A stretch of DNA of 64,000 nucleotides from Patescibacteria group bacterium (GTDB lineage: Bacteria; Patescibacteriota; Patescibacteriia; UBA9570): positions 113,909 to 177,908 of the forward strand of contig JBAZWO010000001.1 of NCBI GenBank assembly GCA_041660305.1. Reading direction: 5' to 3'. Both the position numbers and the translations under genes were made by a program. Below the pieces are notes generated by a model. That model saw nothing but the letters and a program-made list of their open reading frames with translations, searched no databases and was not told where the DNA came from. Positions 2,320 through 61,058 of the stretch are shown piece after piece. Position 1 is the first letter of the stretch, and every line of letters begins with the position of its first letter.

Positions 2320-2551
2320 GATAGACCTCCTTTTACTGTAAGAACCTGCCTCCAATCCGCGGATTTGCGGATGGAGGCTACGTTGATTGAACATGTTGCA
2401 CTAAGCTAGTGATATCCTAGAATCTAAGATACCGTTAGCTTAGTACAGACATGCTCTGTAAAAACTTTTTTCATATATTTGCCTATTGTGTGTTGTCAAA
2501 GTACATCCGCCTACGCCCCTTGCGGGACTTCGGCGAGACGCGTCCGATTAT

Positions 2552-2613
2552 CTCCCTCTTCCTCCTCTCCCCCTTCTCCTAAATTAGGAGAAGGGGGTCG
2601 GGGGGTTGAGGTG
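2552..2613. repeat. GC-rich nested-palindromic intergenic repeat (family A copy)
   Basis: cccccttctcct-aaatt-aggagaaggggg hairpin followed by ggggggttgaggtg. Confidence 0.7.
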
Positions 2614-2760
2614 TTTATATCGAACTGTCAGGGATAGATACAAGCATAAGCCTATATCCATCCATCTGACAGCTCAATACAATCCATCCAGCTGCTTGCC
2701 CGCCGTAGTCCTTCGTAGCTTTTAGCGGAGAAGGACGTAGGGGGGACAGCTCGGTACAAG

Positions 2761-2865
2761 CAACCTACCCTACCTCCCGGCCTCCTCCCCTCTAAAGGGA
2801 GGAGGAGAATTTCTCCCCTCCCTCTTTATAGGAGGGAGGGGCCGGGGGTGGAAGGTAGAATGAAA
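2761..2865. repeat. family A repeat copy (two hairpins)
   Basis: cctcctcccctctaaagggaggagg and cccctccctctttataggagggagggg. Confidence 0.7.
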
Positions 2866-2986
2866 AAGGCGCATTCTCGCGATCTACTAGGACGCAATTC
2901 TGACCACCGTTTACATCTATATATATTGTATATAGCTGGGAGCGGCTGCTAAATTGCTAGATCGTATTGAAAATACGCCTTTTTCA

Positions 2987-3032
2987 CTCTTCTCCCTCCC
3001 TTTGCAGGGGAGGGTTGGGGTGGGGTCTGTAA
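2987..3032. repeat. family A repeat fragment
   Basis: ccctccctttgcaggggaggg hairpin plus a G-run. Confidence 0.55.
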
Positions 3033-3936: not shown

Positions 3937-4266
3937 ATGGCTAAAAAAAGAATACTCCCAAAGGCAATAAGCCCATACGTTACAGCGTATTTAACTGTGT
4001 TAAAGGAACAACGTAAATTACCAATTACGGCCGCTTATGTATTTGGTTCGTGGTCAAAAGGCACACAACACGAAGATAGTGATATTGACATGTGTATAAT
4101 TTCACCAAAATTAACCGGCTGGATGAGAAGAGTAGATAAATTATCACCTGTGCCCTACTCTGATTTATTTATTATCGAACCACATGGTTTCACCCCCAAA
4201 GAATTTGACCCAAAAACAGACCCCTTAGCCTACGAGATTGTGAAGTATGGGATTAGGGTGATTTAG
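3937..4266 (+). CDS. minimal nucleotidyltransferase (MNT antitoxin-type), solo
   Basis: GSWSKGTQHEDSDIDMCIIS matches the GS...DxD polymerase-beta nucleotidyltransferase signature. Paralog of 32275..32601. No HEPN partner is adjacent. Confidence 0.75.
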   Translation: MAKKRILPKAISPYVTAYLTVLKEQRKLPITAAYVFGSWSKGTQHEDSDIDMCIISPKLTGWMRRVDKLSPVPYSDLFIIEPHGFTPKEFDPKTDPLAYEIVKYGIRVI

Positions 4267-4280
4267 AATAATAATTCTCA

Positions 4281-4607
4281 GTGATTCAAACATTCAGTAA
4301 AACATGTTACAATATAAGTATGGATAAAGATATGTTAATAAAAACAGTTGTTCAGCTTATTCAGCATGAGCTACCCAATAATTATCGTGTTATATTGTTC
4401 GGTTCCTGGGCAAAAGGTAATGCCCTGCCTGCCTCCGATATGGATTTCGGCATTATTGGTGAACAAGCCTTGCCTTGGGAAAAATATTTATCAATAAAAA
4501 GACAACTAGATAGCATTCCTACGTTGCGCAGTATCGATTTAGTAGATATGAATAGAGTAGATGAACATTTTAAAAAAAATGCCCTGGCATATGCTCAATA
4601 TTTATAA
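4281..4607 (+). CDS. nucleotidyltransferase (MNT, HI0073-like antitoxin)
   Basis: ILFGSWAKGNALPASDMDFGII nucleotidyltransferase motif, directly upstream of a HEPN gene. Confidence 0.75.
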   Translation: MIQTFSKTCYNISMDKDMLIKTVVQLIQHELPNNYRVILFGSWAKGNALPASDMDFGIIGEQALPWEKYLSIKRQLDSIPTLRSIDLVDMNRVDEHFKKNALAYAQYL

Positions 4608-4615
4608 ATAATATT

Positions 4616-4987
4616 ATGCGAGAAATTATTGAATCTTTCGAACAATCCATTAATCGATTAAAAGAAATTTTGCAAGAACAACCAACGATTGCTAATCGTG
4701 ATTCGGCTATTAAGCGTTTTGAATTAACTTGCGAGTTAGCTTGGAAATCATTACAAAAATATTTACGTGAAGAAAAAATTCTTTGTTATTCACCAAAAGA
4801 TTGTTTAAAACAAGCTTTTAAGCTTAATTTAATTCAAGATGATGAACGTTGGTTAAATATGATTGAAGATAGAAATTTATCCGTTCACGTGTATGATGAG
4901 TCTTTTGCCATAGAACTTTATAAGCGTTTACCAAATTACCTGTCTATATTTGAACAGTTATTAAAAACTTTTAAATCGAAATTGTGA
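4616..4987 (+). CDS. HEPN domain protein (HI0074-like nucleotidyltransferase substrate-binding / HEPN toxin)
   Basis: 123 aa, helical, with an R-x4-H-x-Y motif in DRNLSVHVY. Forms an MNT-HEPN pair with 4281..4607. Confidence 0.7.
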   Translation: MREIIESFEQSINRLKEILQEQPTIANRDSAIKRFELTCELAWKSLQKYLREEKILCYSPKDCLKQAFKLNLIQDDERWLNMIEDRNLSVHVYDESFAIELYKRLPNYLSIFEQLLKTFKSKL

Positions 4988-5005
4988 AGTGCGAGATTAA
5001 AGTGT

Positions 5006-5072
5006 TTCAATTATAAAACCCCACTAGACTGTATAGATGCAACTCTGTGCAATCTAGCCTAGTGGGGGTTTA
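5006..5072. terminator. putative bidirectional intrinsic terminator
   Basis: aaaaCCCCACTAG ... CTAGTGGGGgtttattttttt: a 9-bp stem flanked by an A-run and a T-run, just after the HEPN stop. The loop is long at about 31 nt. Confidence 0.45.
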
Positions 5073-5194
5073 TTTTTTTATTATTCCGCTAACCTCATCT
5101 TAAACTTATTGAAAGATAAAGTTACTGGGATATGGCTCAATTCGTCGTGTACAAGTACAGACAAGGCTGAGCCGGAACCTTAGAAAGGAACAAA

Positions 5195-5215
5195 GAGGAT
5201 TTTTTGGAAAAAAGG
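5195..5215. repeat. left terminal inverted repeat of GC-rich island (GAGGATTTTTTGGAAA)
   Basis: Reverse-complement partner at 9029-9048 (TTTCCAAAAAAAATCCTC). GC content jumps between these two sites. Confidence 0.5.
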
Positions 5216-5222
5216 CCGCCGG

Positions 5223-5966
5223 CTACTGGCTGCGGCGCAGACGGATCTCGATCCGTCGCCGCGCCTGGTCATTCCGCTGTTTGGTAGTCCCGGTCGCGAG
5301 AGAACCATCAGGCATCTGGGTCTGACCGGCCGATAGCGGCAACACCTGCAGTTTGCCACCCGTGATACGAGTGTCATTCAGCAGGAACTTGGCCACCGTC
5401 ACGGCTCGGGACAAACCCAGATCAGCGTTCGACCCTAAGGCCACGATCTCGTTGGCTTGTCCACTCAAGAACAGGAGCAAGTCCCGATCGAGAGTGGACA
5501 TCTTTCCGTACATAACCGTTTCGTCGGTATGTCCGACTACTTCGATTATGTCCGTGCCATAGGTCGCGGCCAACGTCAGAATTTGCGGGACGATCTTATC
5601 CCGCAGCTTTGCCTCGAAAGTGGCATCAACGTCCGCAGATCCGGACGTGAACGACCAACCACCCGCTTCGGACAGCGCGATGATGGGAGGCTGATCGTTC
5701 TTGGCCTCGGCCTGAAGCTTCTTCAACTTCTCGGCGTCCATGCCGAGTTTTTTTAGCTCCTCGGCCATGGCGCACACCTGCGCCTCGAGCTTTTTGTTTC
5801 TCTCGACGACCTCCTGTGAGGTCGTTTTTGCCAGGTTCTCCTGCAGCCGGTTGGCGTTGGCTGCAAGGATCATGTTTCCTATCATGGAAAGTGTTAGCAA
5901 AAGCAGAAGCACTTCCCAGCCCATGAGCGACTGGAGAAGTGCAGTGTTTCGTTGGTGTGCTGCCAT
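5223..5966 (-). CDS. MotB/OmpA-like protein (one N-terminal TM, coiled coil, OmpA-type peptidoglycan-binding C-terminal domain)
   Basis: C-terminal domain shows GHTDETVMYG...NADLGLSRAVTVAKFL...RRIEIRLRR, the OmpA_C signature. TM helix WEVLLLLLTLSMIGNMILAA. Its ATG overlaps the upstream stop (TAATG). Confidence 0.75.
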   Translation of the reverse strand: MAAHQRNTALLQSLMGWEVLLLLLTLSMIGNMILAANANRLQENLAKTTSQEVVERNKKLEAQVCAMAEELKKLGMDAEKLKKLQAEAKNDQPPIIALSEAGGWSFTSGSADVDATFEAKLRDKIVPQILTLAATYGTDIIEVVGHTDETVMYGKMSTLDRDLLLFLSGQANEIVALGSNADLGLSRAVTVAKFLLNDTRITGGKLQVLPLSAGQTQMPDGSLATGTTKQRNDQARRRIEIRLRRSQ

Positions 5967-6616
5967 TAATTTTTCCCCCCAGCATTCTGGTCAGGGAAAA
6001 AATCATTCAGATCCACCAACAACTTTCCAATTCCCGCGACCAGTACCCGGAACGCCTCGAGATCACCATTGAGCGCGTCCGAGTTCAGACGAGCTCGAGA
6101 CAACGACGTCCGCAATGCTTCCACCTCGGCCGTCACCGCTCCGATATTGCCGCTCCCGCCACCAACATTGCCCGTGTTACCACCACCACTTGCCGATCCG
6201 CCTCCGGAAAGCCCATCGATATAGTTTAGGGCCACCATACAGGTGAGCCCTATTGCCACCGACATCAGACCCTCCATCAGTGGAGCAACGATCTGACCGA
6301 CGGGCATGTCGGTCAGAGCTTTTGTTTTTACCCCGTCGAACACGATCCCCAAGGAAACTGCAAGAGCAGCAACCAGAGAGATAATGCCAATGGCTTGAAC
6401 CAAGGTAGCCACGGCGGTCAGTTGGACAGGATATTCCGTAGGGTCGTTTCTCAAAAACCACCTAACAGAAGTCACTGTGATAAAGATCATTCCCCCGAAT
6501 GCGGCTATGGGGAAGAGAACCTTCATCACGTTCAGGCTGCCAGAGAACCAGGACACGAGGAGCGCGAGCACAATCGCCACGAGAACTGGCAGCACTCGCC
6601 GAATGAGAAACTTCAT
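5966..6616 (-). CDS. MotA/TolQ/ExbB-like four-TM membrane protein with Gly-rich cytoplasmic tail
   Basis: 216 aa with four predicted TM helices; the last two are spaced like a MotA/ExbB family channel. AGGAGG ribosome-binding site. Tightly coupled to the OmpA-like gene downstream. Confidence 0.5.
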   Translation of the reverse strand: MKFLIRRVLPVLVAIVLALLVSWFSGSLNVMKVLFPIAAFGGMIFITVTSVRWFLRNDPTEYPVQLTAVATLVQAIGIISLVAALAVSLGIVFDGVKTKALTDMPVGQIVAPLMEGLMSVAIGLTCMVALNYIDGLSGGGSASGGGNTGNVGGGSGNIGAVTAEVEALRTSLSRARLNSDALNGDLEAFRVLVAGIGKLLVDLNDFFPDQNAGGKN

Positions 6617-6624
6617 GTCACCTC

Positions 6625-7680
6625 CTACTTTTTGCCATCCGTGAGCAGCTTATTACCGAAATCTTGCGATCCGGAAGACAACTGCCCAGCGTATTTTGCC
6701 ATGTAGTCCTGTACCACCTTTTTTCCGGCCACACCGCCACCCTTGAGGGCGGCCAGAATGGCCATCACGGCCATGTCCCGAACTGCCTCGGACCCGTCCA
6801 AGATTCCGCACTGCCCACCGCCGGCTTTGGCGATGGCCTTGAAGTTCTCGAGCGCGAGAGGGCTACCCTCTTTGCACTCGGAATCCTCGGGATGCGGAAC
6901 GTGGAACGTGTGGATGATGACCTTGCTGTCGCGAAGAGTCTTGGCGACATCGGTCGCGACCCCGTTTGGAACGGGGTATCCTCGCTTCCGATAGTACACC
7001 AGTTCCTCTGCGCTGTGGGCACGGGCATCACCAATTATCAGCACCATGTCCACCACATCCTGCATCTGCACCACTTCGTTCAACCCGTATTCCAGAGCCT
7101 CGGGGTAAGGATATGGATCCTCTCCCCGCTCTCCACCGCCGGCCGCGTAGATACCGCGCAACCACTGCTTGATCTGGCCGGGGTCGTTTCTGAATCCGGA
7201 ACGCTCGATGATCTTGCTGTCACCATAGTCTCGATATGCGATAACCTCGACCTGAAGACGCTCTCCGGCCTGCTCTCTTGCCCGCATGACAATGTCATCC
7301 ATCTGATTCCGGACGCCATTGATGGTGGGTTGTTGAGAACCTGTGGCATCGATGAGGATCACGACCTTGCCCTCTTTCTGGGCCGAGGTCTGCTCTTCCT
7401 TCGCCTGCTGGCCTGCCTGCCGATACCGAGCCATACGATCTTCCTGAGACTCAGACAGCCGACCGACGGCGGTTGACTGAGGCTGCTGCCTGGCCACACC
7501 AGTTACGGTGCTTCCAGGCAGAGCCTTGGGCCCGCTGCCACTGCTGGAGCTCTGCTGGGCACTTCCCGGAGGAAGCGCGCGCTGAGGCTGCTGCTGGCCG
7601 CTGCTGCTTGCTGCTTGCTGCTCGGGGTTCTTTTTTTCTACGTCCTTGTCTCCACCACGAAGCTTGCTAAAAAGTCCCAT
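6625..7680 (-). CDS. von Willebrand factor A (vWA) domain protein with Gln/Ser-rich N-terminal region
   Basis: VVILIDATGSQQ is a MIDAS-like D-x-T-x-S, followed by VEVIAYRDYGDS and MVLIIGDARAH beta-strand motifs typical of the vWA fold. AAGGAG ribosome-binding site. Confidence 0.6.
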   Translation of the reverse strand: MGLFSKLRGGDKDVEKKNPEQQAASSSGQQQPQRALPPGSAQQSSSSGSGPKALPGSTVTGVARQQPQSTAVGRLSESQEDRMARYRQAGQQAKEEQTSAQKEGKVVILIDATGSQQPTINGVRNQMDDIVMRAREQAGERLQVEVIAYRDYGDSKIIERSGFRNDPGQIKQWLRGIYAAGGGERGEDPYPYPEALEYGLNEVVQMQDVVDMVLIIGDARAHSAEELVYYRKRGYPVPNGVATDVAKTLRDSKVIIHTFHVPHPEDSECKEGSPLALENFKAIAKAGGGQCGILDGSEAVRDMAVMAILAALKGGGVAGKKVVQDYMAKYAGQLSSGSQDFGNKLLTDGKK

Positions 7681-7691
7681 CGTTCATCTCC

Positions 7692-8972
7692 TTATTTCTT
7701 CGGTTTTCCCTTATCAAGGGTCGCTCTATGCTTAGCAGCGTCCTTGAACAAACGTTCATGCTCTTCGCGCTCCTTGGGAGGAGCGGAGGTATGTCTGTCC
7801 GGATGGTGCTTGAGAGCCATCTTGCGATACGCCTTTTTGATTGTCTCAGCGCTATGCTCGGTGTCCCGAGCATAGCCGAAGAAATCGCAAGCGTCGCACC
7901 AGGCTTGCCAGTCCTTGTCGAACGTGGAAGCCTGTTTCGGATCTTGCCACTTGCCGCCACCATACTGCGCCTGGATCTGCTTGATAAAGGCGTCAATGTC
8001 GCCCCGTACTTGAGCGAGTGACTCGAGCAGTTCAATTACCTCGTCTAGCGACGAGGCATCGTGCACTGCTTTTTCGAGCCGCTCTTTCTCAACAACGAGA
8101 CCGTCCATCAACGCTTCGTTGGCCTTAACCCAGTCCAAAACCTTCTGCTTGCGCATCAGGTCCGGATTCTGAGCCGGCCAATACTGCAGCATCCAGGCGA
8201 TCTGGCCGCCCAGAACGGAGATGAGAAACTGAAAGTTACCCCATTCCTTCTGGAAATCGACCAGTAGAGACCGTGCTTCATTGGCTTCCTCAAGAGAAAG
8301 CCCTGTGGGGTTCGAACTGAACGGCTTGAGCATCTTGAGAAACTGCTCGAAAGCCGCCAGCTGAATTTTTCCACGGAGCCCCTCCGCCTCGGGCACCACC
8401 GCTAACATGATTCTGGCGGTGTCGAGGAGTGTTTCAGCCTGCTGGTGATTAGCCATGTGCATAGCTGAAATAATTTGGTCACGCGAACCGTCCGACAGCC
8501 TACCCCGAAACTCACCGAGCTCGAGGAGGATGCCGATAACCTGGTTGAGACGTACAAACTCCGCCGGGGACTTGGCGCGTATACGATCCACGTTGATCCC
8601 GTAAGCGGAGCAGAACTCCCGGAATGCCTGAACCGGCCCCGGGTGAGTCGCTAAAAGCTGAAAGTACTCACCCGGTATCCACTCCAGCCCCAGCCGCGCG
8701 AACAGAGCATTTGCAGCTCGTTTTTGCAACCGAGGCAGAGCGGGGTGTGCCGTAGGATCAAAACGAGCGAGTCGCGACCGTTTGGGAACCCCGCCGATGC
8801 CGGATCCCGAAACGCGCTGCACCCGCTGCTTGGCCTGCGGCCCGACAGACTGTGGGGTTGAAGGGTCAGGGACCCCCAACCGCCGTCGAAGCCCAATAGG
8901 CAGACGGTGGCCGAGGGCGAGAAGCACACTCAAGAACCTCTTGAGTAGCTCCTCTAGGGCGGACTTAATCAT
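7692..8972 (-). CDS. large helical protein with C-terminal DnaJ J-domain (HPD motif)
   Basis: C-terminus SAETIKKAYRKMALKHHPDRH is a canonical J-domain. Start chosen at MIKSALEEL, with GGGAGG four nucleotides upstream. The ORF track extends to 9050. Confidence 0.8.
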   Translation of the reverse strand: MIKSALEELLKRFLSVLLALGHRLPIGLRRRLGVPDPSTPQSVGPQAKQRVQRVSGSGIGGVPKRSRLARFDPTAHPALPRLQKRAANALFARLGLEWIPGEYFQLLATHPGPVQAFREFCSAYGINVDRIRAKSPAEFVRLNQVIGILLELGEFRGRLSDGSRDQIISAMHMANHQQAETLLDTARIMLAVVPEAEGLRGKIQLAAFEQFLKMLKPFSSNPTGLSLEEANEARSLLVDFQKEWGNFQFLISVLGGQIAWMLQYWPAQNPDLMRKQKVLDWVKANEALMDGLVVEKERLEKAVHDASSLDEVIELLESLAQVRGDIDAFIKQIQAQYGGGKWQDPKQASTFDKDWQAWCDACDFFGYARDTEHSAETIKKAYRKMALKHHPDRHTSAPPKEREEHERLFKDAAKHRATLDKGKPKK

Positions 8973-9028
8973 CGAACCTCCCTTGTGGCCATTCGTTAGC
9001 CACGTTTTTCGTTTTCTAAAATCAAAAA

Positions 9029-9048
9029 AATTTCCAAAAAAAATCCTC
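9029..9048. repeat. right terminal inverted repeat of GC-rich island
   Basis: TTTCCAAAAAAAATCCTC is the reverse complement of the left repeat at 5195-5212, allowing for T-run length. Confidence 0.5.
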
Positions 9049-9103
9049 AATTTTCAACGATCAAGCCTGTAACAAAGATATTATCCTTGCCAGGCTAATT
9101 TAA

Positions 9104-9204
9104 GCGGAGGATATCTCTTCACCCTAACCCCTGGGTTCCCGCCTGCCTCCTTAGACGGAGTACGGCGGGCAGGTACCCCAGTGGGTTAGAAGAGAGCTCT
9201 GCTT
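9104..9204. repeat. GC-rich nested palindromic repeat (family A variant)
   Basis: ctaacccctgg ... ccagtgggttag outer arms and a cccgcctgcc ... ggcgggcagg inner arm. Confidence 0.55.
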
Positions 9205-9405: not shown

Positions 9406-9717
9406 ATGAGTACAAAACAGCTGAATGATATTGTAAAAACCATTACTAAAGAAATACAGCCAGAACAAGTGGTGTTGTTTGGTTCACAAGTATGGGGTAC
9501 TCCTCACATAGGTAGCGATATTGATTTATTAGTAGTAGCCAATACTACTGGTAAAATGGAGTATTTACGTAAAATACGCCAAGTTTTATTTGGCCACAAC
9601 TTTCCGCCGATAGATTTAATCACCTATTCAGCCTCGGAAATTAAGCAGCGTATTACTCAAGGCGATAGTTTTTTGGCAGAAATTATGAACAGAGGCAAAA
9701 TAGTTTATGAACGCTAA
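9406..9717 (+). CDS. nucleotidyltransferase (MNT antitoxin)
   Basis: VVLFGSQVWGTPHIGSDIDLLVV. Overlaps the downstream HEPN gene by 11 nt. Confidence 0.75.
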   Translation: MSTKQLNDIVKTITKEIQPEQVVLFGSQVWGTPHIGSDIDLLVVANTTGKMEYLRKIRQVLFGHNFPPIDLITYSASEIKQRITQGDSFLAEIMNRGKIVYER

Positions 9718-10123
9718 TATTTTGCCGATCATTGTTCAAGAATGGCTAGACAAAGCTAATAATGATGAATTAAACGCTCAATCAATTTTAAAACATAAAG
9801 ACGGCACACCAAGTGGTGTTTGTTTTTTGTCGCAACAAATGGCTGAAAAATATTTGAAAGCTTTTTTAATGTTTCATAAAAAACCATTACAAAAAATCCA
9901 TGCGTTAGATCGGTTATTAGAATCTTGCATTGAAATAAATAATGATTTAAGCACACTGAAAGATGATGTAATTTTTTTAACAGATTTCTATATTTCCACA
10001 CGTTACCCAGCTGATATACCGGATTCATCCTGGAATGACGCTGAACATGCTCTAACGGCCGCTAAGCATGTAAAAGATGTAATAATAAAAACATTAGCAT
10101 TATCAGCGTCATCAGAAATTTAA
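9707..10123 (+). CDS. HEPN domain protein (PF05168-like)
   Basis: QQMAEKYLKAFL and a C-terminal ISTRYPAD motif typical of HEPN. Paired with the MNT gene upstream. Confidence 0.7.
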   Translation: MNANILPIIVQEWLDKANNDELNAQSILKHKDGTPSGVCFLSQQMAEKYLKAFLMFHKKPLQKIHALDRLLESCIEINNDLSTLKDDVIFLTDFYISTRYPADIPDSSWNDAEHALTAAKHVKDVIIKTLALSASSEI

Positions 10124-10140: not shown

Positions 10141-10950
10141 TCAGCGTTTCAAATGATCCTGCATGCTCACTGGCTCATCTGGTTTGCCGTCTACCGCGTT
10201 AAAACGATCTAACACTTTATATTGTGGGGGTTCCACTGGTTCCACGATGGTAGAGACGCCCCGGCGGGGCGTCTCTACCTTGTTGGGCAACGTCTCTACC
10301 TTAGGTGTTTCTACAGGGGATTCCTGTGGGAACGCGATATATCGCGTTCTCTTCGCCTCAAATTTTAACAAATAATACGTATAAGACGCTAACAAGCCTA
10401 GCGCGCCAGCGGCTGCTCCATTGAGTGGTATATTTGGTTTTACTGGTCTATTACTAGTAACCGGCCCTTCAATTTGTTTTATGTATACGCTATCTCCCCC
10501 ACCATAATAATCAGAGGAGTTAGTAGTTAACACCTGCGCAACACCGGTAGCAATGCCTTCCGCGTTAGCAGGATTAGTGCCATAACCAAATATTTTAATA
10601 ATACCGGTTTCTGGCACTACTTCGGCGCTTACCAGTTTTTCCCAAGCACTTTTTTTATCATTCGAATCGATACTAAACTGCTCTGGTTTTACCTGGCCAG
10701 TTTCTAATACTCGATTCAAAAAATCTAGTGAAGTAATTACGTTTACCAAGCTGTTTCCCAAGCTAGCGGCCGCCCGTTGCGCTGTGTAGGAATCTACCGT
10801 AGCGCTTTGCTTTTGCACAATTAGTAAATCTACTTCCGATTTATATAATTGATCGGGAATAAACGATAAACCAACGGCAATAGCCGCGCATACTAACGTG
10901 CTGCATGTTATTACTAGCCAGTGTTCTTTAATCAGAAGTAAATAACGCAT
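10141..10950 (-). CDS. Wzz-like polysaccharide chain-length determinant protein (TM-periplasmic-TM)
   Basis: N-terminal TM plus a C-terminal TM (GAAAGALGLLASYTYYLLK). The C-terminal region carries an in-frame copy of the palindrome GTAGAGACGC...GCGTCTCTAC. Confidence 0.55.
   Translation of the reverse strand: MRYLLLIKEHWLVITCSTLVCAAIAVGLSFIPDQLYKSEVDLLIVQKQSATVDSYTAQRAAASLGNSLVNVITSLDFLNRVLETGQVKPEQFSIDSNDKKSAWEKLVSAEVVPETGIIKIFGYGTNPANAEGIATGVAQVLTTNSSDYYGGGDSVYIKQIEGPVTSNRPVKPNIPLNGAAAGALGLLASYTYYLLKFEAKRTRYIAFPQESPVETPKVETLPNKVETPRRGVSTIVEPVEPPQYKVLDRFNAVDGKPDEPVSMQDHLKR
10250..10323. repeat. family B perfect palindrome (GTAGAGACGC-ccccggcgggg-GCGTCTCTAC) plus two degenerate half-copies, inside CDS
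   Basis: 29-bp perfect palindrome at 10250-10278. Other copies are at 16646-16673 and 29766-29793. Confidence 0.8.
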
Positions 10951-16470: not shown

Positions 16471-17250
16471 CTATTTTTTACGAAAAGTCAAGTAAAAACC
16501 ACAAAGTACCGAAACAACCCCAATATACTGCGCCGCCGTTAAACCAAACCAGCGGCTATCTAGTATGCGATCAAAATCCAACATTACCCTGACTAATCCA
16601 TCCCAGATTAAAAACAGACCTACGAAAAACGGCGGTTTTGTTTTTGTAGAGACGCATTGCAATGCGTCTCTACAAAAATGTTTAATCAACGTGAACACCC
16701 CAAACAACCCGGCGCCGCTAATGGCCAAATATAATCCATGGTTATGCCGCACTAGCCCATCGCCGTAATACACTTCCCCTAGAAAAAAATTAGTAACACT
16801 GCCAGGATGATCGAATATAAAAAAGCAGCCTAAGCGGCCAATAGCTAAGCCAAGCGGCAATACAAACGCGGCCAAATCGGCATATGGCCAGAATGGTAAC
16901 TTTTTTTTACGTAAATAAATAACCGCGGTAATAATAGCCCCAAGAAATCCCCCACTAATAGACATGCCCCCATCCCAAATTTTAAATATTTCTACAAAGT
17001 TACTAGTAAAATATTGCCATTCAGTAATAACATAAAACAATCTAGAGCCGATAAACGCGGCTAACACTACCCAAAACGTTAAATCGATCATGGTTTCTCC
17101 GGATATTTTCCATTGCGCCGCTGAACGCTTGGCTACTAACGCGGCCGCTAAAATACCCAGTGCCACAAACAAGCCCCATACTTGAATATTGATGAGGCTA
17201 AGTGGAATTGTAGACCAGTGGAGATTGGGTAACATAGGGATAGACCTCAT
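16471..17250 (-). CDS. lgt: prolipoprotein diacylglyceryl transferase
   Basis: Polytopic membrane protein with GRLGCFFIFDHPG, an Lgt-like signature. The annotated ATG lies inside the repeat end, so the true start is probably MLPNLHW at about 17235. An in-frame palindrome insertion lies at 16646-16673. Confidence 0.7.
   Translation of the reverse strand: MRSIPMLPNLHWSTIPLSLINIQVWGLFVALGILAAALVAKRSAAQWKISGETMIDLTFWVVLAAFIGSRLFYVITEWQYFTSNFVEIFKIWDGGMSISGGFLGAIITAVIYLRKKKLPFWPYADLAAFVLPLGLAIGRLGCFFIFDHPGSVTNFFLGEVYYGDGLVRHNHGLYLAISGAGLFGVFTLIKHFCRDALQCVSTKTKPPFFVGLFLIWDGLVRVMLDFDRILDSRWFGLTAAQYIGVVSVLCGFYLTFRKK
16646..16673. repeat. family B perfect palindrome inserted in-frame in lgt
   Basis: GTAGAGACGCattgcaatGCGTCTCTAC encodes ...CRDALQCVS... 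within Lgt. Confidence 0.8.
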
Positions 17251-17350
17251 CCCCCTAACCCCCTTCTCCTGCAGGAGAAGGGGGAAAAATTAATTTAACC
17301 TCCCCCTCTTCCCTTTACAGGGGAAGAGGGGGCCGGGGGGTGATGAGGTC
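17244..17350. repeat. family A MITE-like element with terminal inverted repeats GACCTCATC/GATGAGGTC
   Basis: gacctcatcc...cccccttctcctgcaggagaaggggg...cccctcttccctttacaggggaagaggggg...gatgaggtc. Fills the lgt to dsbA-like intergenic gap exactly. Confidence 0.8.
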
Positions 17351-18124: not shown

Positions 18125-18165
18125 TAAGTTAATATATATGAAATTACGTAATAATTCAAATTCCT

Positions 18166-18310
18166 ACCTCACCTCCAACCTCCTCTCCTCTAAGGAGAGG
18201 AGGAGAAATTTATTAAATTTTATTTTATTCCCCCTCTCTCCTTAGAGGAGAGAGGGGGTAGGGGAAGTGAGGTAGGCTGTTTAGGGGAAGGGGGTTAGGG
18301 TGATGAGGTC
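18166..18310. repeat. family A repeat (long form)
   Basis: cctcctctcctctaaggagaggaggag ... ccccctctctccttagaggagagaggggg ... gatgaggtc. Confidence 0.8.
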
Positions 18311-19569: not shown

Positions 19570-19738
19570 CCCCTAAATCACCTTTCCCCAACCTACCTCA
19601 CCTCCCAGCCTCCTCTCCTCTCAGGAGAGGAGGAGAAATTTCTTAAATTGCATTTTATTCCCCCTCTCTCCTCAGAGGAGAGAGGGGGTAGGGGGAGTGA
19701 GGTAGGATGTTTAGAGGGGGTCGGGGGGTGATGAGGTC
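19570..19738. repeat. family A repeat (long form)
   Basis: Same nested palindromes as 18166-18310. Ends in gatgaggtc. Confidence 0.8.
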
Positions 19739-21060: not shown

Positions 21061-21228
21061 AGACCTCTATCCCCAACCCTTTCCCAACCTACCTCACCTC
21101 CCGGCCTCCTCTCCTCTAAGGAGAGGAGGAGAAATTTATTAAATTTTATTTTATTCCCCCTCTCTCCTCTGAGGAGAGAGGGGGTAGGGGGAGTGAGGTA
21201 GGCTGTTTAGGGGGCTGGGGGGCTTAGA
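21061..21228. repeat. family A repeat (long form)
   Basis: agacctctatcccc ... same palindromes as other long copies. Confidence 0.8.
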
Positions 21229-23977: not shown

Positions 23978-24000
23978 TGCAATATATATTAATGTTTAAG

Positions 24001-24156
24001 CCCCCTTTCCCAACCTACCTCACCTCCCGGCCTCCTCTCCTCTAAGGAGAGGAGGAGAAATTTATTAAATTGCATTTTATTCCCCCTCTCTCCTCAGAGG
24101 AGAGAGGGGGTAGGGGGAGTGAGGTAGGATGTTTAGTGAGTCGGGGGTGATGAGGT
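24001..24156. repeat. family A repeat (long form)
   Basis: Same nested palindromes. Ends in gatgaggtc. Confidence 0.8.
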
Positions 24157-24160
24157 CGAT

Positions 24161-26142: not shown

Positions 26143-26215
26143 CAGACCTCATCCCCCTAGCCCCCTTCTCCTAACAACCTACCTCATCCCCAGCCCTTCT
26201 CCTCTCAGGAGAAGG
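26143..26215. repeat. family A repeat (short form)
   Basis: gacctcatccccctagcccccttctcct ... ctcaggagaaggg. Confidence 0.7.
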
Positions 26216-26279
26216 GAGTTATACTACTATTATTGAGCGCTCACATTTTTTTAATTGAGCGTTTTTATATTTATTTTTT

Positions 26280-26606
26280 ATGTTTATTCGTCCACAACAA
26301 TCTAACACCATTGAATTACAACATCGTTTACAATATATCGCTAAAAAATTTCGTAAAAAACCAACCGTAACTGAACAAAAATTATGGCAATATTTACGAA
26401 ATCGTAAATTAAATGGTTTAAAATTTAATCGACAACATCCAATCTATCAATACATTGCTGATTTTTATTGCCATGAGTATAAGTTGATTAGGGATTTAAT
26501 GTTAAAAAAATATGACTATACCGTATTACGTTTTAATAATGAACAAGTGATGAATAATATTAGTTATGTGTTAAAACAAATTAAATCTACTCCCCCTTCT
26601 CCTTAG
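26280..26606 (+). CDS. DUF559-type endonuclease-like protein, apparently with an internal deletion (possible pseudogene)
   Basis: PTVTEQKLWQYLRNRKLNGLKFNRQHPIYQYIADFYCHEYKLI matches DUF559. The expected catalytic core (...IEVDG...) is missing. The C-terminal residues and stop come from the family A repeat. Confidence 0.5.
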   Translation: MFIRPQQSNTIELQHRLQYIAKKFRKKPTVTEQKLWQYLRNRKLNGLKFNRQHPIYQYIADFYCHEYKLIRDLMLKKYDYTVLRFNNEQVMNNISYVLKQIKSTPPSP

Positions 26607-26674
26607 AGGAGAAGGGGGTTGGGGGGATGAGGTAGGATGTTTAAATTAGGGAGAGGGGGCTAGGGGGATGAGGT
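26590..26674. repeat. family A repeat
   Basis: cccccttctccttagaggagaaggggg ... ctagggggatgaggtc. Confidence 0.75.
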
Positions 26675-26677
26675 CTA

Positions 26678-29765: not shown

Positions 29766-29793
29766 GTAGAGACGCCCGGCCGGGCGTCTCTAC
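29766..29793. repeat. family B perfect palindrome in murC 5' region
   Basis: GTAGAGACGCccggccggGCGTCTCTAC. Confidence 0.8.
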
Positions 29794-32274: not shown

Positions 32275-32601
32275 TTAAACAATCCGTACACCATTTTGTT
32301 TTATTTCCGCCACCAAAGAAGATGTAATGACGCTGAAATCTTTTGGACAAAAACCAACCGGTTCAATCATGGGGTCAAGATTTTTTGGCCGCTTCTGCCA
32401 CAAATATTGCAAAGCCTGCCAGGGCTGTTTAAATTTTGCAGAAATAATACAAACATCAACATCGCTCCAGCGGTGCTGTGTTCCTTTGGCATACGATCCG
32501 AATAGATATACTTGTTTTACCGGTATATTATCTGTTTCGATGTCCTTGACAAATGCGTTAATAGAATTAATTATTTTTTTGGATATTCGTTTTTTAACCA
32601 T
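32275..32601 (-). CDS. minimal nucleotidyltransferase (MNT), paralog of 3937..4266
   Basis: LFGSYAKGTQHRWSDVDVCIIS. Confidence 0.75.
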   Translation of the reverse strand: MVKKRISKKIINSINAFVKDIETDNIPVKQVYLFGSYAKGTQHRWSDVDVCIISAKFKQPWQALQYLWQKRPKNLDPMIEPVGFCPKDFSVITSSLVAEIKQNGVRIV

Positions 32602-32761: not shown

Positions 32762-33026
32762 AACTGCTAAATTTTATCATTTTTTTTAAATAAAATCAAT
32801 CATGGCATTTACAAATCCCTAAATTAGGCGTAAAATAGGGAATGTAATCCTTAAATTAGACATAATATATATTCACTAAGCTACTTTTGTTGTTCATGAT
32901 TGTTTAATAAATTTTGACGTGCTGAGCAGAAAAAACATAAAAATAAACTCATTAGACGTGAAGTGAGGTAGAACGATAAGACACCTAGCGACGTCTCTGT
33001 TTAGCGCCGTCTGGGGAAAACTTGGC

Positions 33027-33440
33027 TTGAAACAAGTGTGTTTTCGTGATAACATGCTCGTACTTATGGAACAAGATACAACTAAATTAGAAATTTTACA
33101 GGCCATCAATAAATTTGCTACTCGTGTTGAAGAAAATTTTACTGAAGTTAAACAAGACATTAAAGATATTAAGAAACGGGTCACAAATCTGGAAACTAAA
33201 GTATCTTCAATTGAGACTAGAGTTGGATCACTTGAAACAGATACTAAATCAATAAGGTCTCAAATGGTAACAAAAAGTTATCTGGATGATAAGCTGTCCG
33301 ACTTGCACGGTGAAACTATTAAATTAACAAAACAAACCAATAATAAAGTCGTTAGTTTGGCTAATCATCTCCATAATGAAGAGAGTTTATCCACCAACAG
33401 TCTAAAACAAGTAATTGCTTTACCGCCATTTGCGGTTTAA
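33027..33440 (+). CDS. coiled-coil heptad-repeat protein, copy 1 (true start probably MLVLMEQ/MEQDTTK)
   Basis: VTNLETKVSSIETRVGSLETDTKSI heptads. About 90% identical to 35621..36097 apart from repeat number. Confidence 0.6.
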   Translation: MKQVCFRDNMLVLMEQDTTKLEILQAINKFATRVEENFTEVKQDIKDIKKRVTNLETKVSSIETRVGSLETDTKSIRSQMVTKSYLDDKLSDLHGETIKLTKQTNNKVVSLANHLHNEESLSTNSLKQVIALPPFAV

Positions 33441-33456
33441 GAAGCTTCACCTTTGA

Positions 33457-34566
33457 TTATTTTGTAAAATAATTTCTAAAATCTAATTGGGTAATTTTAG
33501 AAAAATCAGTTTTGCTATTTTTTGCAATATAAGTAATGGCAAAAACTGGATTTACATTATAGTCGAGTTTTTCAAAATGTAAAATTTCCCCCAAATCTTG
33601 TTTTAACTTATCGTAATCTGGTCGATACTCATTCAGGTTAAGGCCGATAGGATTGTAACACAACACCCAGCCGTAATATTTATGCCGGTGACTTTGAAAA
33701 ATGGTTTGCCAATCAGGCGCCGTACTGTCAAAAAAATGTTGATATGGATTTACGCCAAAACCATAATATGGTAAATCCGCTAAACCAAAGCCACCAAAGC
33801 GCGGCACGTTCAATTCAATCGGCATAAGCCTACCATTCTTTTCCTTAAATTCAGCGTGAATTGGTAAATTTTTTATATGCAATTTTTTATTTAATGCAGT
33901 AAATAAATCAACCACTTGCTTAGCGTAAGTATGATAAATTTCTTCATTCGTATAATACAGCAGGTGAAAATAATCCTGAATAGCAGACAGAGGATGATGA
34001 CAAAAATTCGTTATCACCGGATTACCGGTAGCATTGTAAAATAGATCAAAGGTATACTCATCACCGGTGATATACTCCTCTATCAAAAAATCATTACTAG
34101 TAAATACTTGGGATGAAAAAAATGAACCGCTCTTTTGAATTTCAACTTTAAGTTCTTGCGCTAACCGAGCTAAATTAGTTGTACTATCCATTGCTCTAAC
34201 GCCGATACCAAAGAAGCCCTGCTGTGGCTTAATGATATACTTCTTGCCCGAAGCAATTTTTACGGTCGGTAATTTATCAAGCGTGATCGCTGCAAAATAA
34301 AAATCACTGTGGCTATCCTGCAGCAGCTCACGGCATTGCTTTTTATTTTTTATCTGCTTAATTTTCTGCGGTGTAGTATTACTGGAATATTTTTCCAAAA
34401 CACTTGGTACTGATGTTTCGTCTGGTACGTAGATATAATCATCTGTCGTAAATTCCACTTTTGCGACATTGAGTTCTGCTTCAGATAACACGCTGTAGTC
34501 TTTATGATATCTCAAGGCAGTTAAAAGTGGCGACGTATAATTATGACCCGTGATGATATATTTCAT
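33457..34566 (-). CDS. ATP-grasp domain protein
   Basis: KKYIIKPQQGFFGIGV, LIEEYITGDEYTFDLF and MPIELNVPRFGG motifs. Confidence 0.6.
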   Translation of the reverse strand: MKYIITGHNYTSPLLTALRYHKDYSVLSEAELNVAKVEFTTDDYIYVPDETSVPSVLEKYSSNTTPQKIKQIKNKKQCRELLQDSHSDFYFAAITLDKLPTVKIASGKKYIIKPQQGFFGIGVRAMDSTTNLARLAQELKVEIQKSGSFFSSQVFTSNDFLIEEYITGDEYTFDLFYNATGNPVITNFCHHPLSAIQDYFHLLYYTNEEIYHTYAKQVVDLFTALNKKLHIKNLPIHAEFKEKNGRLMPIELNVPRFGGFGLADLPYYGFGVNPYQHFFDSTAPDWQTIFQSHRHKYYGWVLCYNPIGLNLNEYRPDYDKLKQDLGEILHFEKLDYNVNPVFAITYIAKNSKTDFSKITQLDFRNYFTK

Positions 34567-35522: not shown

Positions 35523-35620
35523 ACCAAACGCCCCTGAACAGCGTTGGATTTGAATAATAATCCATGAATCCTGTTTAGCGACGGTTCTAACAAAATAGCG
35601 CCGTCTGGGGAAAACTTGGC

Positions 35621-36097
35621 TTGAAACAAGTGTGTTTTTGTGATAACATGCTCGTACTTATGGAACAAGATACCACTAAATCAGAAATTTTACAGGCCAT
35701 CAATAAATTTGCTACTAACGTTGAAGAAAATTTTACTGAAGTTAAACAAGACATTAAAGATATTAAGAAACGTGTTACAAAGCTTGAAACCAAAGTAGAA
35801 TCTATTGAAACCAAAGTAAAATCTATTGAAAACAAGGTAGGGTCTCTTGAAATTAATGTGGGATCACTAGAAACCAAAGTCGGATCACTTGATACAACTA
35901 CTACATCAATACGGGCTCAAATGGTAACAAAAAGCTATTTAGACGACAAATTGGCTGACATGTACGGAAAAAATATTACTCATACTAAACAAATCAACAC
36001 TAAAGTTGTTTCTTTAGCTAATCATCTTCGTGATGAAGGAAATTTATCCACCAACAGTCTAAAACAAGTAATTGCTTTACCGCCATTTGCGGTTTAA
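35621..36097 (+). CDS. coiled-coil heptad-repeat protein, copy 2 (three extra heptads)
   Basis: ETKVESIETKVKSIENKVGSLEINVGSLETKVGSL. The 5' and 3' 50 codons are nearly identical to copy 1. Confidence 0.6.
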   Translation: MKQVCFCDNMLVLMEQDTTKSEILQAINKFATNVEENFTEVKQDIKDIKKRVTKLETKVESIETKVKSIENKVGSLEINVGSLETKVGSLDTTTTSIRAQMVTKSYLDDKLADMYGKNITHTKQINTKVVSLANHLRDEGNLSTNSLKQVIALPPFAV

Positions 36098-36157
36098 GTA
36101 TAAATAATTTTGATTTTATCTGCCAAATTTTGAGCGGCGTTGGGCTTATTTAAAGTT

Positions 36158-37390: not shown

Positions 37391-38503
37391 TTATTCAAGA
37401 GCAAAAATAATTTCAGCCAAAAGCCGGGCGGCATTGGGTTTAACCAATGATTTTATGTTCTGGCTCAGTTGTTGTTGTAAAACTGTATTATTTAGTAAAT
37501 TTTGAATAGTTTTTGTTAATAATTGCGCTGTTAATCCTGCTTGAGACAGAATAATTGCCACTTGGCGTTTCTTTAAATACTCCGCATTATATTCCTGATG
37601 CGAATGGGGAATGGGGATAATAATAGCCGGCTTGCCTAAAAGCGCTAATTCGGAAATAGTGCCTAAGCCGGCTCGGGCTACTACTATATCGGCTTTATGT
37701 AAAGCCTCGGCATATTCACTGGTTAATAATTCAAACGCATGATAACGAGTGTGTTGAATATTCGGATGTGTTTTATTTTTGCCAGTAACGTGAATGACGT
37801 TCGCTATATCACACAAGTCTGCACTGACTAAATCGTTAATGGCTTGCGCGCCGGTACCGCCGCCGACGATAAATACTGTTGGATAATTTTGATCTAATTT
37901 AAAATAATTAGTAGTAGGAGTTAAATCGCGCACCGGATTGCCAATCCACTCGGCGCCGCGCAATGAAATATCATTAAAAGCTTTGGTAAGCGCCATAGCA
38001 AATGGAGCGGTTAAACGAGTAGTTAAGCTAACCTGTAAATCTTGCTGGTGCACTACTATTTTTACCCCGCAACACCAGCCGGCCCACACCACTGGTGGAG
38101 CAATAAAACTACCAGCTGATATAATTACTTGCGGCTTATATTTTAAAATTAAATATAACGCTTTAAAAAAAGCTAATTTAATAAAGATAATATCAATAAA
38201 ATTGCGCCAAGAAAAATAGCGCCTAAATTTGCCAGCCGGAACGGTTAAATAAGTAAAACGCTCCCCTACCAACATGCGCTCTACACCGGTTTTAGTGCCG
38301 ACAAAATAAATTTTAGCATCAACTAAATGCTCGGCCACGGCCAACAACGGCATTACTGATCCGGCGGTACCACCGCCTACTAAAAAAATACCTACCTCAT
38401 CCCCAACCCTTCTCCTCAAAGGAGAAGGGAGAATTAGCTTTTCATTATTCCCCCTCTCCTCAGAGGAGAGGGGGCTAGGGGGTGAGGTAGGACAAGTTTT
38501 CAT
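37391..38503 (-). CDS. murG: undecaprenyldiphospho-muramoylpentapeptide beta-N-acetylglucosaminyltransferase
   Basis: IFLVGGGTAGSVMPLLAVAEHL, GT28 fold. The N-terminal 40 codons derive from the family A repeat at 38393-38498. Confidence 0.75.
   Translation of the reverse strand: MKTCPTSPPSPLSSEERGNNEKLILPSPLRRRVGDEVGIFLVGGGTAGSVMPLLAVAEHLVDAKIYFVGTKTGVERMLVGERFTYLTVPAGKFRRYFSWRNFIDIIFIKLAFFKALYLILKYKPQVIISAGSFIAPPVVWAGWCCGVKIVVHQQDLQVSLTTRLTAPFAMALTKAFNDISLRGAEWIGNPVRDLTPTTNYFKLDQNYPTVFIVGGGTGAQAINDLVSADLCDIANVIHVTGKNKTHPNIQHTRYHAFELLTSEYAEALHKADIVVARAGLGTISELALLGKPAIIIPIPHSHQEYNAEYLKKRQVAIILSQAGLTAQLLTKTIQNLLNNTVLQQQLSQNIKSLVKPNAARLLAEIIFALE
38393..38498. repeat. family A repeat overlapping murG 5' end
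   Basis: cccttctcctcaaaggagaaggg ... ccccctctcctcagaggagaggggg. Confidence 0.75.
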
Positions 38504-61002: not shown

Positions 61003-61058
61003 ATCATTCCCCCTCTCTCCTTAGAGGAGAGAGGGGGTAAGGGGGAGTGAGGTAGTTT
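61003..61058. repeat. family A repeat (short)
   Basis: ccccctctctccttagaggagagaggggg. Confidence 0.75.

Follow-up and report, generated by a model that had tools for sequence, protein, structure and literature searches.

Triplex-type palindromic repeats associated with a Vsr-like DUF559 nuclease gene, from a Patescibacteria genome to Escherichia coli

Introduction

The BoxC repeat is said to have been described by Bergler in 1992. The same element is known as PIT and as TM_ECO and follows the pattern CCCTCNCCC-N3-6-GGGNGAGGG-N3-GGGNGAGGG (Holder et al. 2015, PMC4666352; Hoyne/Maher 2000 is an earlier source on PIT and triplexes). Escherichia coli MG1655 carries 23 intergenic TM_ECO copies, five as inverted pairs, and TM repeats amount to thousands of copies in 262 proteobacterial genomes, with many G/C-rich motifs in cyanobacteria (PMC4666352). 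As a single strand, TM_ECO forms a stable triplex in vitro by circular dichroism (CD) and nuclear magnetic resonance (NMR) data; TM loci in E. coli show elevated rearrangement, mobility functions were never found nearby, and neither ycjD nor endonucleases are mentioned in that work (PMC4666352). The origin, spread and function of BoxC/PIT/TM repeats have been unexplained for decades. Here we describe a family of nested palindromic repeats in a 64-kb stretch of contig JBAZWO010000001.1 (hereafter the window), which belongs to a metagenome-assembled genome (MAG) of Patescibacteria, the candidate phyla radiation (CPR), with a GC content of ~38%. One copy encloses a gene for a Vsr-like nuclease of the DUF559 family, and the linkage of such repeats to this one nuclease family, from CPR to E. 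coli K-12, appears to be new. With a probability of about 0.6, the repeats are of the BoxC/PIT/TM lineage and their arms are the cognate DNA of a YcjD-type DUF559 nuclease, in a partnership resembling that of REPINs and RAYTs.

The repeats resemble REPINs and their RAYT in being short hairpins scattered over intergenic DNA and frequently paired as inverted doublets, in having a lone small nuclease gene with its own repeats on either side, in their genome-specific sequences, and in their higher number where the gene is present. The enzyme, however, is a Vsr-like PD-(D/E)XK nuclease whose action on the repeats is putative, and not an HUH/Y1 transposase, and the arms lack a 5' GTAG/CGTC tag and carry a predicted triplex-forming third strand. 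With Vsr-like homing endonucleases, free-standing or intron-borne, such as I-Bth0305I, they share the nuclease fold, a gene placed centrally in a sequence that is also found without it, and intact, degraded and empty forms side by side, but there is no intron or intein here, and what would serve as the homing site is a dispersed repeat, not a unique gene. Yeast mitochondrial GC clusters, as outlined in PMC4478555, are GC-rich palindromic mobile clusters in an AT-rich compact genome; they differ in belonging to a eukaryotic organelle, in sequence and, as far as that outline goes, in having no known nuclease partner of the DUF559 kind.

A family of triplex-type arms in the window

We built a covariance model (CM) from 18 aligned arm modules, with right arms as read and left arms reverse-complemented, and searched the 64 kb with filters off. 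The search returned 20 full-length arms at 11 loci and none elsewhere (E 7e-20 to 2e-5). A sequence-agnostic triplex-motif finder recovered the identical 20 sites with zero extra, a hairpin census gave the same sites and no others, and a direct-repeat census yielded families of 4-9 copies at the places given in an initial annotation of the window. The 9-mer GACCTCATC occurs seven times on the two strands against 0.08 expected, and none of 100 shuffles reached seven. Arm GC is 0.56-0.69 compared with ~0.38 for the surrounding genome. Ten of the 11 loci are intergenic and one lies in the 5' end of murG; eight are doublets or composites. The family is real, and its motif is far above chance. An Rfam scan of the window found zero families at the gathering score, with only spurious sub-threshold microRNA-hairpin matches at E-value thresholds; a sequence-only nhmmer arm profile, with 32 hits against 193 for the CM, was dropped.

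These results bear out the dispersed, nested-palindromic, almost wholly intergenic and mobile-looking family of the initial annotation, and 12 of its 13 coordinates are members; the one at 9104 is a different palindrome, and those at 26143 and 26590, listed as separate copies, are the two ends of a single 533-bp element that encloses the DUF559 gene. Confinement of copies to this contig region had been named as a sign of an assembly artefact. Copies are also present on a second contig of the same genome that was recovered by two independent assemblies (L002/L003), and an artefact is therefore rejected.

Read in order, each arm is made up of a pyrimidine stem and its loop, the purine stem, a second, short loop (2-3 nt) and a G-rich tail that mirrors the purine stem. 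Specifically, the hairpin has 10-13 bp with an all-pyrimidine 5' strand and an all-purine 3' strand, and the tail ends in (A/G)TGAGGT(AGG or C). Within the tail, G stands opposite G, and A or T opposite A, of the purine strand of its own hairpin, as in stem AGGAGAGAGGGGG with tail GGGGGAGTGAGGT, stem AGGAGAAGGG with tail GGGATGAGGT, and stem AGGAGAGGAGG with tail GGAGGTGAGGT. Perfect purine-motif triads (G.G:C, A.A:T, T.A:T) extend over the full 10-13-nt stem in 14 of the 20 window arms, and the others miss 1-3. Across 113 arms, 92% of positions are triad-compatible, compared with 66.5% once tails are shuffled and 81.9% once they are exchanged among arms (0/200 replicates reach the observed value). 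Judged by sequence, this architecture is what defines a class II purine-motif intrastrand triplex. Since left arms are reverse complements of right arms, a doublet's tails resemble terminal inverted repeats (TIRs). The end sequences that had been described as such, GACCTCATC and CCTACCTCACC, do exist, but they are the predicted third-strand tails, and only two elements (17243-17350 and 26145-26675) have GACCTCATC at both ends; the remaining elements have it at the right end only.

The arms occur singly, as inverted doublets and as nested composites. In Watson-Crick folds of the single-stranded DNA, doublets form a Y-shaped three-way junction, in which the two tails make the basal stem from which the two hairpins branch (-34 to -39 kcal/mol, z-scores -7.5 to -8). 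The doublet from which this study started is the following.

17241-17350, no strand assigned: flagged doublet with left arm 17241-17284 and right arm 17304-17349, tails GACCTCATC/GATGAGGTC pointing outward; CM scores 47.2 and 51.2 bits

It lies between the stop codon of a DsbA-like gene (17351) and the start of lgt, has triads at 12/12 and 11/12 positions and folds into the Y-shaped junction at -39 kcal/mol (z -8.0). Positions 17243-17350 read GACCTCATCCCCCTAACCCCCTTCTCCT-GC-AGGAGAAGGGGG ... CCCCCTCTTCCC-TTTACAG-GGGAAGAGGGGG-CC-GGGGGGTGATGAGGTC.

In composites, which comprise the 18163, 19570, 21061 and 23998 loci and the gene-carrying copy, an inner doublet sits between the halves of an outer unit, with the conserved linkers ..CAA and A/CTGTTTAG. 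Inner arms carry GTAG (GGTGAGGTAGG) 3' of the hairpin on its strand, whereas outer arms are without GTAG and end in GAGGTC. Elsewhere in the same genome (L002 11990-12115), three tandem left-type modules (AGACCTCTATCCCC..., CCTACCTCACCCCC... and the CCTACCTCTCTCCCCC... hairpin) stand directly upstream of pth without matching right halves; this stack suggests repeated nesting followed by one-sided deletion. As a separate observation, left arms (18163-18177, 19592-19607 and others) contain TCACCTCC, which we take to match the anti-Shine-Dalgarno end of 16S rRNA exactly. On the opposite strand, GGAGGTGA is a perfect extended Shine-Dalgarno (SD) sequence, and the flanking genes are on the minus strand, so that their transcripts would carry these motifs.

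By their sequence features, the repeats belong to the BoxC/PIT/TM class of G/C-rich intrastrand-triplex palindromic repeats, as a sequence variant of that structural class. They share its C-rich stem, loop, complementary G-rich stem, ~3-nt loop and G-rich mirror third strand, and they are likewise multi-copy, intergenic, often in inverted pairs and very widely distributed. They differ in having stems of 10-13 nt with alternating C/T (CCCCCTCTCTCCT) rather than the 9-nt CCCTCNCCC, and the strict TM_ECO consensus, searched as a regular expression, has 0 matches in the window. Doublet tails point outward in a TIR-like manner in the window, whereas they point inward in the single E. coli pair examined: in the gcvP-ygfF spacer (L108 1204-1310), the right arm precedes the left. 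Nested composites, a gene-carrying copy and a CPR host at 38% GC are further differences; earlier work named no mobility gene in association with the repeats.

The gene-carrying copy and its nuclease

One element of the window carries a gene.

26144-26676, plus strand: gene-carrying copy enclosing a DUF559 open reading frame (ORF), with CM arms at 26178-26216 and 26592-26636
26280-26606, plus strand: ORF P0001 of 108 aa, DUF559 (Vsr-like PD-(D/E)XK); Pfam PF04480 at E=1e-25, matched in two stretches

From left to right, the element comprises an outer left tail (26144-26172), the left arm (26178-26216), an AT-rich leader, the DUF559 ORF and the right arm (26592-26636), followed by the linker ATGTTTA and an outer right arm that reaches 26676. 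The stop codon TAG of P0001 forms the loop of the right-arm hairpin, and its last five codons and the TAG are repeat sequence, a feature conserved in the family, confirming the earlier suggestion that a repeat donates the C-terminus and stop of this gene. The relation implied by that suggestion is nevertheless reversed: DUF559 is no mere recipient of repeat sequence but sits between a left and a right arm, and the element is likely the gene-carrying form of the family.

P0001 is degraded. Alignment with an intact paralogue, P0002 (125 aa, 80% identity), shows an in-frame 17-aa deletion that removes the ExDGxxH catalytic core. P0002 lies on the other contig of the same genome (L002 6060-6640), in a cassette that shares left arm, leader, right arm, linker and outer arm with the window cassette, and it keeps the invariant columns D61, E72, G75, H78 and D85 of the ExDGxxH...D..R core. 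One genome thus holds an intact cassette, a core-deleted cassette and gene-less doublets with common ends.

In profile hidden Markov model searches, the protein matches the Neisseria DUF559 protein of PDB 3hrl (4e-33) and the homing endonuclease I-Bth0305I (PDB 3r3p, 7e-6). An AlphaFold model of P0002 (predicted local distance difference test score 85) matches 3hrl and I-Bth0305I, then the nuclease domains of PvuRts1I/AbaSI, and Vsr; the Foldseek match to I-Bth0305I has E=2e-4 and a template-modelling score (TM-score) of 0.75. The same fold search also retrieved apicomplexan and ciliate mitoribosome subunits at TM-scores of 0.5-0.58 normalised to the query, which would fit what we assume to be a relationship between eukaryotic RAP-like domains and DUF559. 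The DUF559 protein VsrA of Caulobacter causes SOS-inducing DNA damage in vivo (PMC12907096), supporting the view that members of this family are active nucleases.

Linkage of arms to DUF559 across phyla

We assembled 80 DUF559 loci from named genomes of other phyla (Cyanobacteria, Chloroflexota, Bacteroidota, Verrucomicrobiota, Nitrospirota, Acidobacteriota, Planctomycetota, Peribacteria and a Methanophagales archaeon) and defined a near zone within 400 nt of the gene, which covers 6.9% of the sequence. A CM built from window arms only found 145 full arms in 47 of these 80 loci, and 78% of the arms lie within the near zone (p=1.5e-100). A generic triplex finder gave 1.44 motifs per kb near DUF559 versus 0.036 per kb elsewhere, a ~40-fold difference that involves 57/80 loci (p=1e-105). 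The strict TM_ECO consensus is present in eight of the loci. The downstream motif starts between -71 and +38 nt from the ORF end in 26 of 27 cases, and DUF559 homologues of other phyla often have peptide tails that are translated hairpins, for example ...PLSQWERGAGG.

The arms keep their architecture across this distance. Among 93 distinct arms, the hairpin is 99.3% paired, with compensatory C-G/T-A changes in 10 of 12 pairs and a 5' strand that is always pyrimidine, and the tail GGGGG-TGAG-G is conserved at 89-99%. Arms are also specific to their genomes: gene-distal arms are more like the gene-flanking arms of their own locus than those of other loci (0.80 versus 0.70 identity, p=1e-5). Other phyla likewise have doublets that pair a left with a right arm and lack the gene (loci L033, L078 and L006). 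Among 2.9 million viral contigs there are only 16 DUF559 loci, indicating that phage carriage is not a main route.

In eight of the loci (L060, L013, L015, L022, L063, L067, L079 and L082), the DUF559 match falls inside an ORF of 590-1240 aa, which in L060 has a UvrA-like N-terminus. These long ORFs could represent fused or inserted domains, or an artefact of ORF extension.

ycjD and BoxC in E. coli

The stop codon of E. coli K-12 ycjD lies in the loop of the BoxC hairpin CCCTCTCCC-TGAAA-GAGCGAGGGGG, a canonical TM_ECO motif (CCCCTCTGGGGAGAGGGTTAGGGTGAGGGG) stands between ycjD and fabI, and a hairpin upstream of ycjD carries ACCTCAT/ATGAGGT. We take the motif beside ycjD to be the 'BoxC' repeat that was first noted near envM (fabI). 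In the K-12 ycjD-fabI region (L085 4240-4420), a partial second ycjD 3' end (METVLENIRQGLNR...) is followed by a decayed arm, which has the appearance of a leftover from a second or nested cassette.

Among 5,426 complete E. coli genomes, 3,378 have ycjD, as a single copy at one locus. Genomes without it have the eef efflux operon at the same site, a whole-segment replacement in sapF-ycjD-fabI; presence of eef at the ycjD site and of ycjD in phylogroups A, B1 and C and in ST69 and ST182 has been described (PMC12817139). We counted BoxC-like places in 60 genomes spaced evenly down the ranking. Genomes with ycjD have 14-27 (median 18) and those without it 1-16 (median 2), including 1-2 in UTI89, Nissle and ST131. 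These counts are consistent with the 29 copies in strain 55989 and the single copy in IHE3034 given by Holder et al. (PMC4666352). The pattern fits what is expected if the gene sustains the repeats, and it is confounded by phylogeny. Precise indel boundaries were not found at the two BoxC loci compared for presence and absence, sapF-ycjD-fabI and gcvP-ygfF; at the latter, homology stops ~30 nt ahead of the BoxC pair in ~2,400 genomes.

Other copies and their coding contributions

The remaining copies in the window are as follows.

18163-18310, no strand assigned: composite, inner doublet 18163-18276 and outer right arm ending in GATGAGGTC; CM 58.1 and 67.9 bits
19570-19738, no strand assigned: composite, decayed outer left tail, inner doublet 19592-19706, linker ATGTTTAG and outer right arm
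21061-21223, no strand assigned: composite, inner doublet 21088-21202; identified by CM and repeat census
23998-24157, no strand assigned: composite, inner doublet 24014-24128; identified by CM, repeat census and fold
38391-38491, no strand assigned: murG doublet, in-frame after murG codon 4; identified by CM, fold and repeat family D6
61010-61056, plus strand: solo right arm; CM 63.6 bits, triads 13/13
2764-2859, no strand assigned: diverged doublet beside a GC-rich island; CM 55.3 and 51.6 bits, fold computed
2551-2615, no strand assigned: one hairpin with a tail on either side, the single-unit form; CM 36.3 bits (minus strand) and 49.9 bits (plus strand)
2994-3029, plus strand: weak solo right arm; CM 23.4 bits, triads 7/7

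The elements fit tightly between genes. The right end lies 0-3 nt past a stop codon in five of six cases, which probably reflects where very short spacers tolerate insertions; 18163-18310 adjoins the stop codon of an aminotransferase gene at 18311, and the outer ends of 21061-21223 adjoin a start codon (21060) and a stop codon (21224). All five oriented window copies, together with the L002 cassette, point opposite to their flanking genes, which with six cases is no more than suggestive. The inner part of 19570-19738 folds as a three-way junction. In the region orthologous to this element (L084, 69% identical), merely a 23-nt spacer takes its place; a metagenome scan for close relatives of the flanking aminotransferase gave this one 69%-identity locus, a distant 'empty' spacer, and found no clean presence/absence pair.

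The initial annotation also held that copies donate coding sequence to murG and lgt. For murG this is upheld: the ORF runs MKTC-[34 repeat-encoded residues]-IFLVGGGTAGS from an ATG that overlaps the stop codon of ftsW (ATGA), the Pfam MurG domain starts only at ORF residue 39, and gene callers give a protein of 370 aa. No canonical start codon was found between the element and the essential G-loop of murG. The left arm of this doublet is 93% identical to the left arm and flank of the DUF559 cassette (family D6). Rickettsia palindromic elements are palindromic repeats inserted in-frame into housekeeping genes, and the murG copy, which adds ~34 codons, is an in-frame insertion of the same kind; it differs in its unrelated sequence and in that only one of the 11 loci is coding. 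For lgt, an ATG inside GACCTCATC had been put forward as the start and probably is not. Gene callers skip it in favour of the next ATG, 15 nt downstream, which has GAGG 9 nt upstream of it, gives a protein of 254 aa and agrees better with the start of the LGT domain.

Discussion

We interpret the arms as the cognate DNA of the DUF559 nuclease, with short copies as gene-less derivatives or partners of the cassette. We infer that binding or cutting of the arms by the nuclease would drive their spread or persistence. Specifically, the nuclease would recognise and nick structured arms, probably while these are transiently single-stranded as a triplex or Y junction, and recombinational repair between copies would then copy or convert, duplicate or delete elements. 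Such repair would also explain why instability has been reported at these loci. The partnership could take two forms: the nuclease may maintain or mobilise the repeats in trans, in the manner of RAYT with REPINs, or the gene may home into gene-less doublets and split them by insertion.

Several points weigh against this interpretation. The strict triplex motif was not found near the gene in 23 of the 80 DUF559 loci, and the triplex escaped detection by Holder et al. both in vivo and in double-stranded DNA (PMC4666352). Unable to rejoin DNA, a 125-aa PD-(D/E)XK nuclease would have to leave any transposition to host repair, and neither the L084 region nor the E. coli loci provided a clean pair of filled and empty alleles with exact boundaries. 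In E. coli, ycjD sits at one fixed locus, with no sign of movement found in the 5,426 complete genomes; the O157/O55 lineage retains ~12 BoxC copies without ycjD; and the copy-number correlation amounts to few independent phylogenetic contrasts.

An unlikely alternative, which follows the view of Holder et al., is that the elements are protein-independent structural repeats that arise by replication slippage and repair, with DUF559 accumulating there or serving as a host repair enzyme. In agreement with it, TM loci of E. coli count as hot spots of rearrangement, variable replacement takes place at the ycjD and gcvP-ygfF loci, and relatives of Vsr are repair nucleases. However, it leaves unexplained a near-constant ~40-nt motif that recurs from CPR to Proteobacteria and an archaeon at any genome GC, the enrichment at a single gene family whose ORF end lies within the motif, and the match of distal arms to local gene-flanking arms.

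That the repeats are host regulatory elements, acting within operons as terminators or attenuators, mRNA stabilisers or donors of ribosome-binding sites, is very improbable. Strong hairpins, right ends just past stop codons, and tails with GGAGGTGA/GAGGT, one at SD distance from the likely lgt start, would suit such roles. Yet a promoter and terminator scan, otherwise uninformative, found no T-tract terminator on the gene-sense strand, PIT/BoxC shows neither promoter nor terminator activity in E. coli (PMC4666352), one copy lies within the murG coding sequence, and third-strand covariation and DUF559 linkage are left unexplained.

We see hardly more prospect for the proposal of the initial annotation, a classical MITE (miniature inverted-repeat transposable element) with TIRs GACCTCATC/GATGAGGTC that is mobilised in trans by a DDE transposase encoded elsewhere. 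The elements do resemble MITEs such as Correia elements and Nezha in their 100-170 bp size, inverted-repeat-like ends, multi-copy intergenic spread and long hairpin folds. Flanking direct repeats, however, measure 0-2 nt in eight elements and 4 nt in one, with a slack of +/-3 nt, and random pairs usually give 2-4 nt, so there is no target-site duplication above chance. The supposed TIR varies in step with the stem of each hairpin, as a triplex third strand would, and GACCTCATC stands at both ends in just 2 of 11 loci. Across phyla these arms flank DUF559, and the sole gene-carrying copy encodes DUF559. The 64-kb window encodes no transposase, RAYT (Y1 HUH) or integrase, and no cognate insertion sequence accompanies the elements there.

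Least probable of all is that the elements are REPs and REPINs mobilised by a RAYT elsewhere in the genome with DUF559 as a passenger or frequent neighbour: inverted intergenic hairpin doublets, GTAG on inner tails (GGTGAGGTAGG) and a separate GTAG-tagged palindrome family in the window speak for it, but the window encodes no RAYT, GTAG is placed 3' of the hairpin rather than 5' as in GTAG-tagged REPs and is missing from outer arms, the gene flanked by arms in the window and their partner across phyla is DUF559 (PF04480), and Holder et al. saw no transposase near the E. coli copies (PMC4666352).

Extending the interpretation of arms as nuclease targets, we tentatively propose that YcjD-type DUF559 proteins may be the missing partner of BoxC/PIT/TM repeats across Bacteria and some Archaea, which would constitute a second, independent symbiosis of the REPIN-RAYT kind, structure-recognising and repair-driven. 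A link of DUF559 or ycjD to BoxC or triplex repeats was not found in the literature on either; subscription journals were not covered, and an earlier description is possible. The linkage yields a concrete hypothesis that is testable in E. coli. If true, it would explain a pan-bacterial repeat family together with its rearrangement hot spots, and structure-specific nucleases would gain a new type. In annotation, it makes sense of GC-rich islands within streamlined AT-rich genomes, the proline/serine/glycine-rich tails of DUF559 proteins, and in-frame extensions such as that of murG.

Additional observations in the window

A second palindromic family, GTAGAGACGC-N8-GCGTCTCTAC (GTAG-tagged, REP-like, family D18), occurs at 10250-10278, 16646-16673 and 29766-29793. 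Two of its three copies are in-frame in ORFs, namely lgt (...CRDALQCVST...) and a Wzz-like gene (...VETPRRGVST...).

Two islands of 51-62% GC (1-2400 and 5000-9050) stand out from the ~38% GC genome, and their ORFs are without a Pfam match above the curated cut-off. They are bordered by the triplex arms at 2551-3029 and by the palindrome at 9104. The latter is a ~80-nt imperfect palindrome, CTCTTCACCCTAACCCCTGGG...CCCAGTGGGTTAGAAGAGAG (9104-9200), at the edge of a GC-rich island and outside the triplex-arm family. An independent ENA assembly also contains the island at 5000-9050, which hence is not a chimera of a single assembler. These islands beside the repeats look like foreign DNA.

Segments of 236-271 nt are repeated at 78-90% identity ~2.6 kb apart (33002-33458 and 35596-36115, families D3/D4), overlapping coiled-coil-like small ORFs that flank TrmB-like and ATP-grasp genes. 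Gene pairs of the HEPN/minimal-nucleotidyltransferase type, which are toxin-antitoxin-like, are located at 3937-4987, 9406-10123 and 32275-32601.

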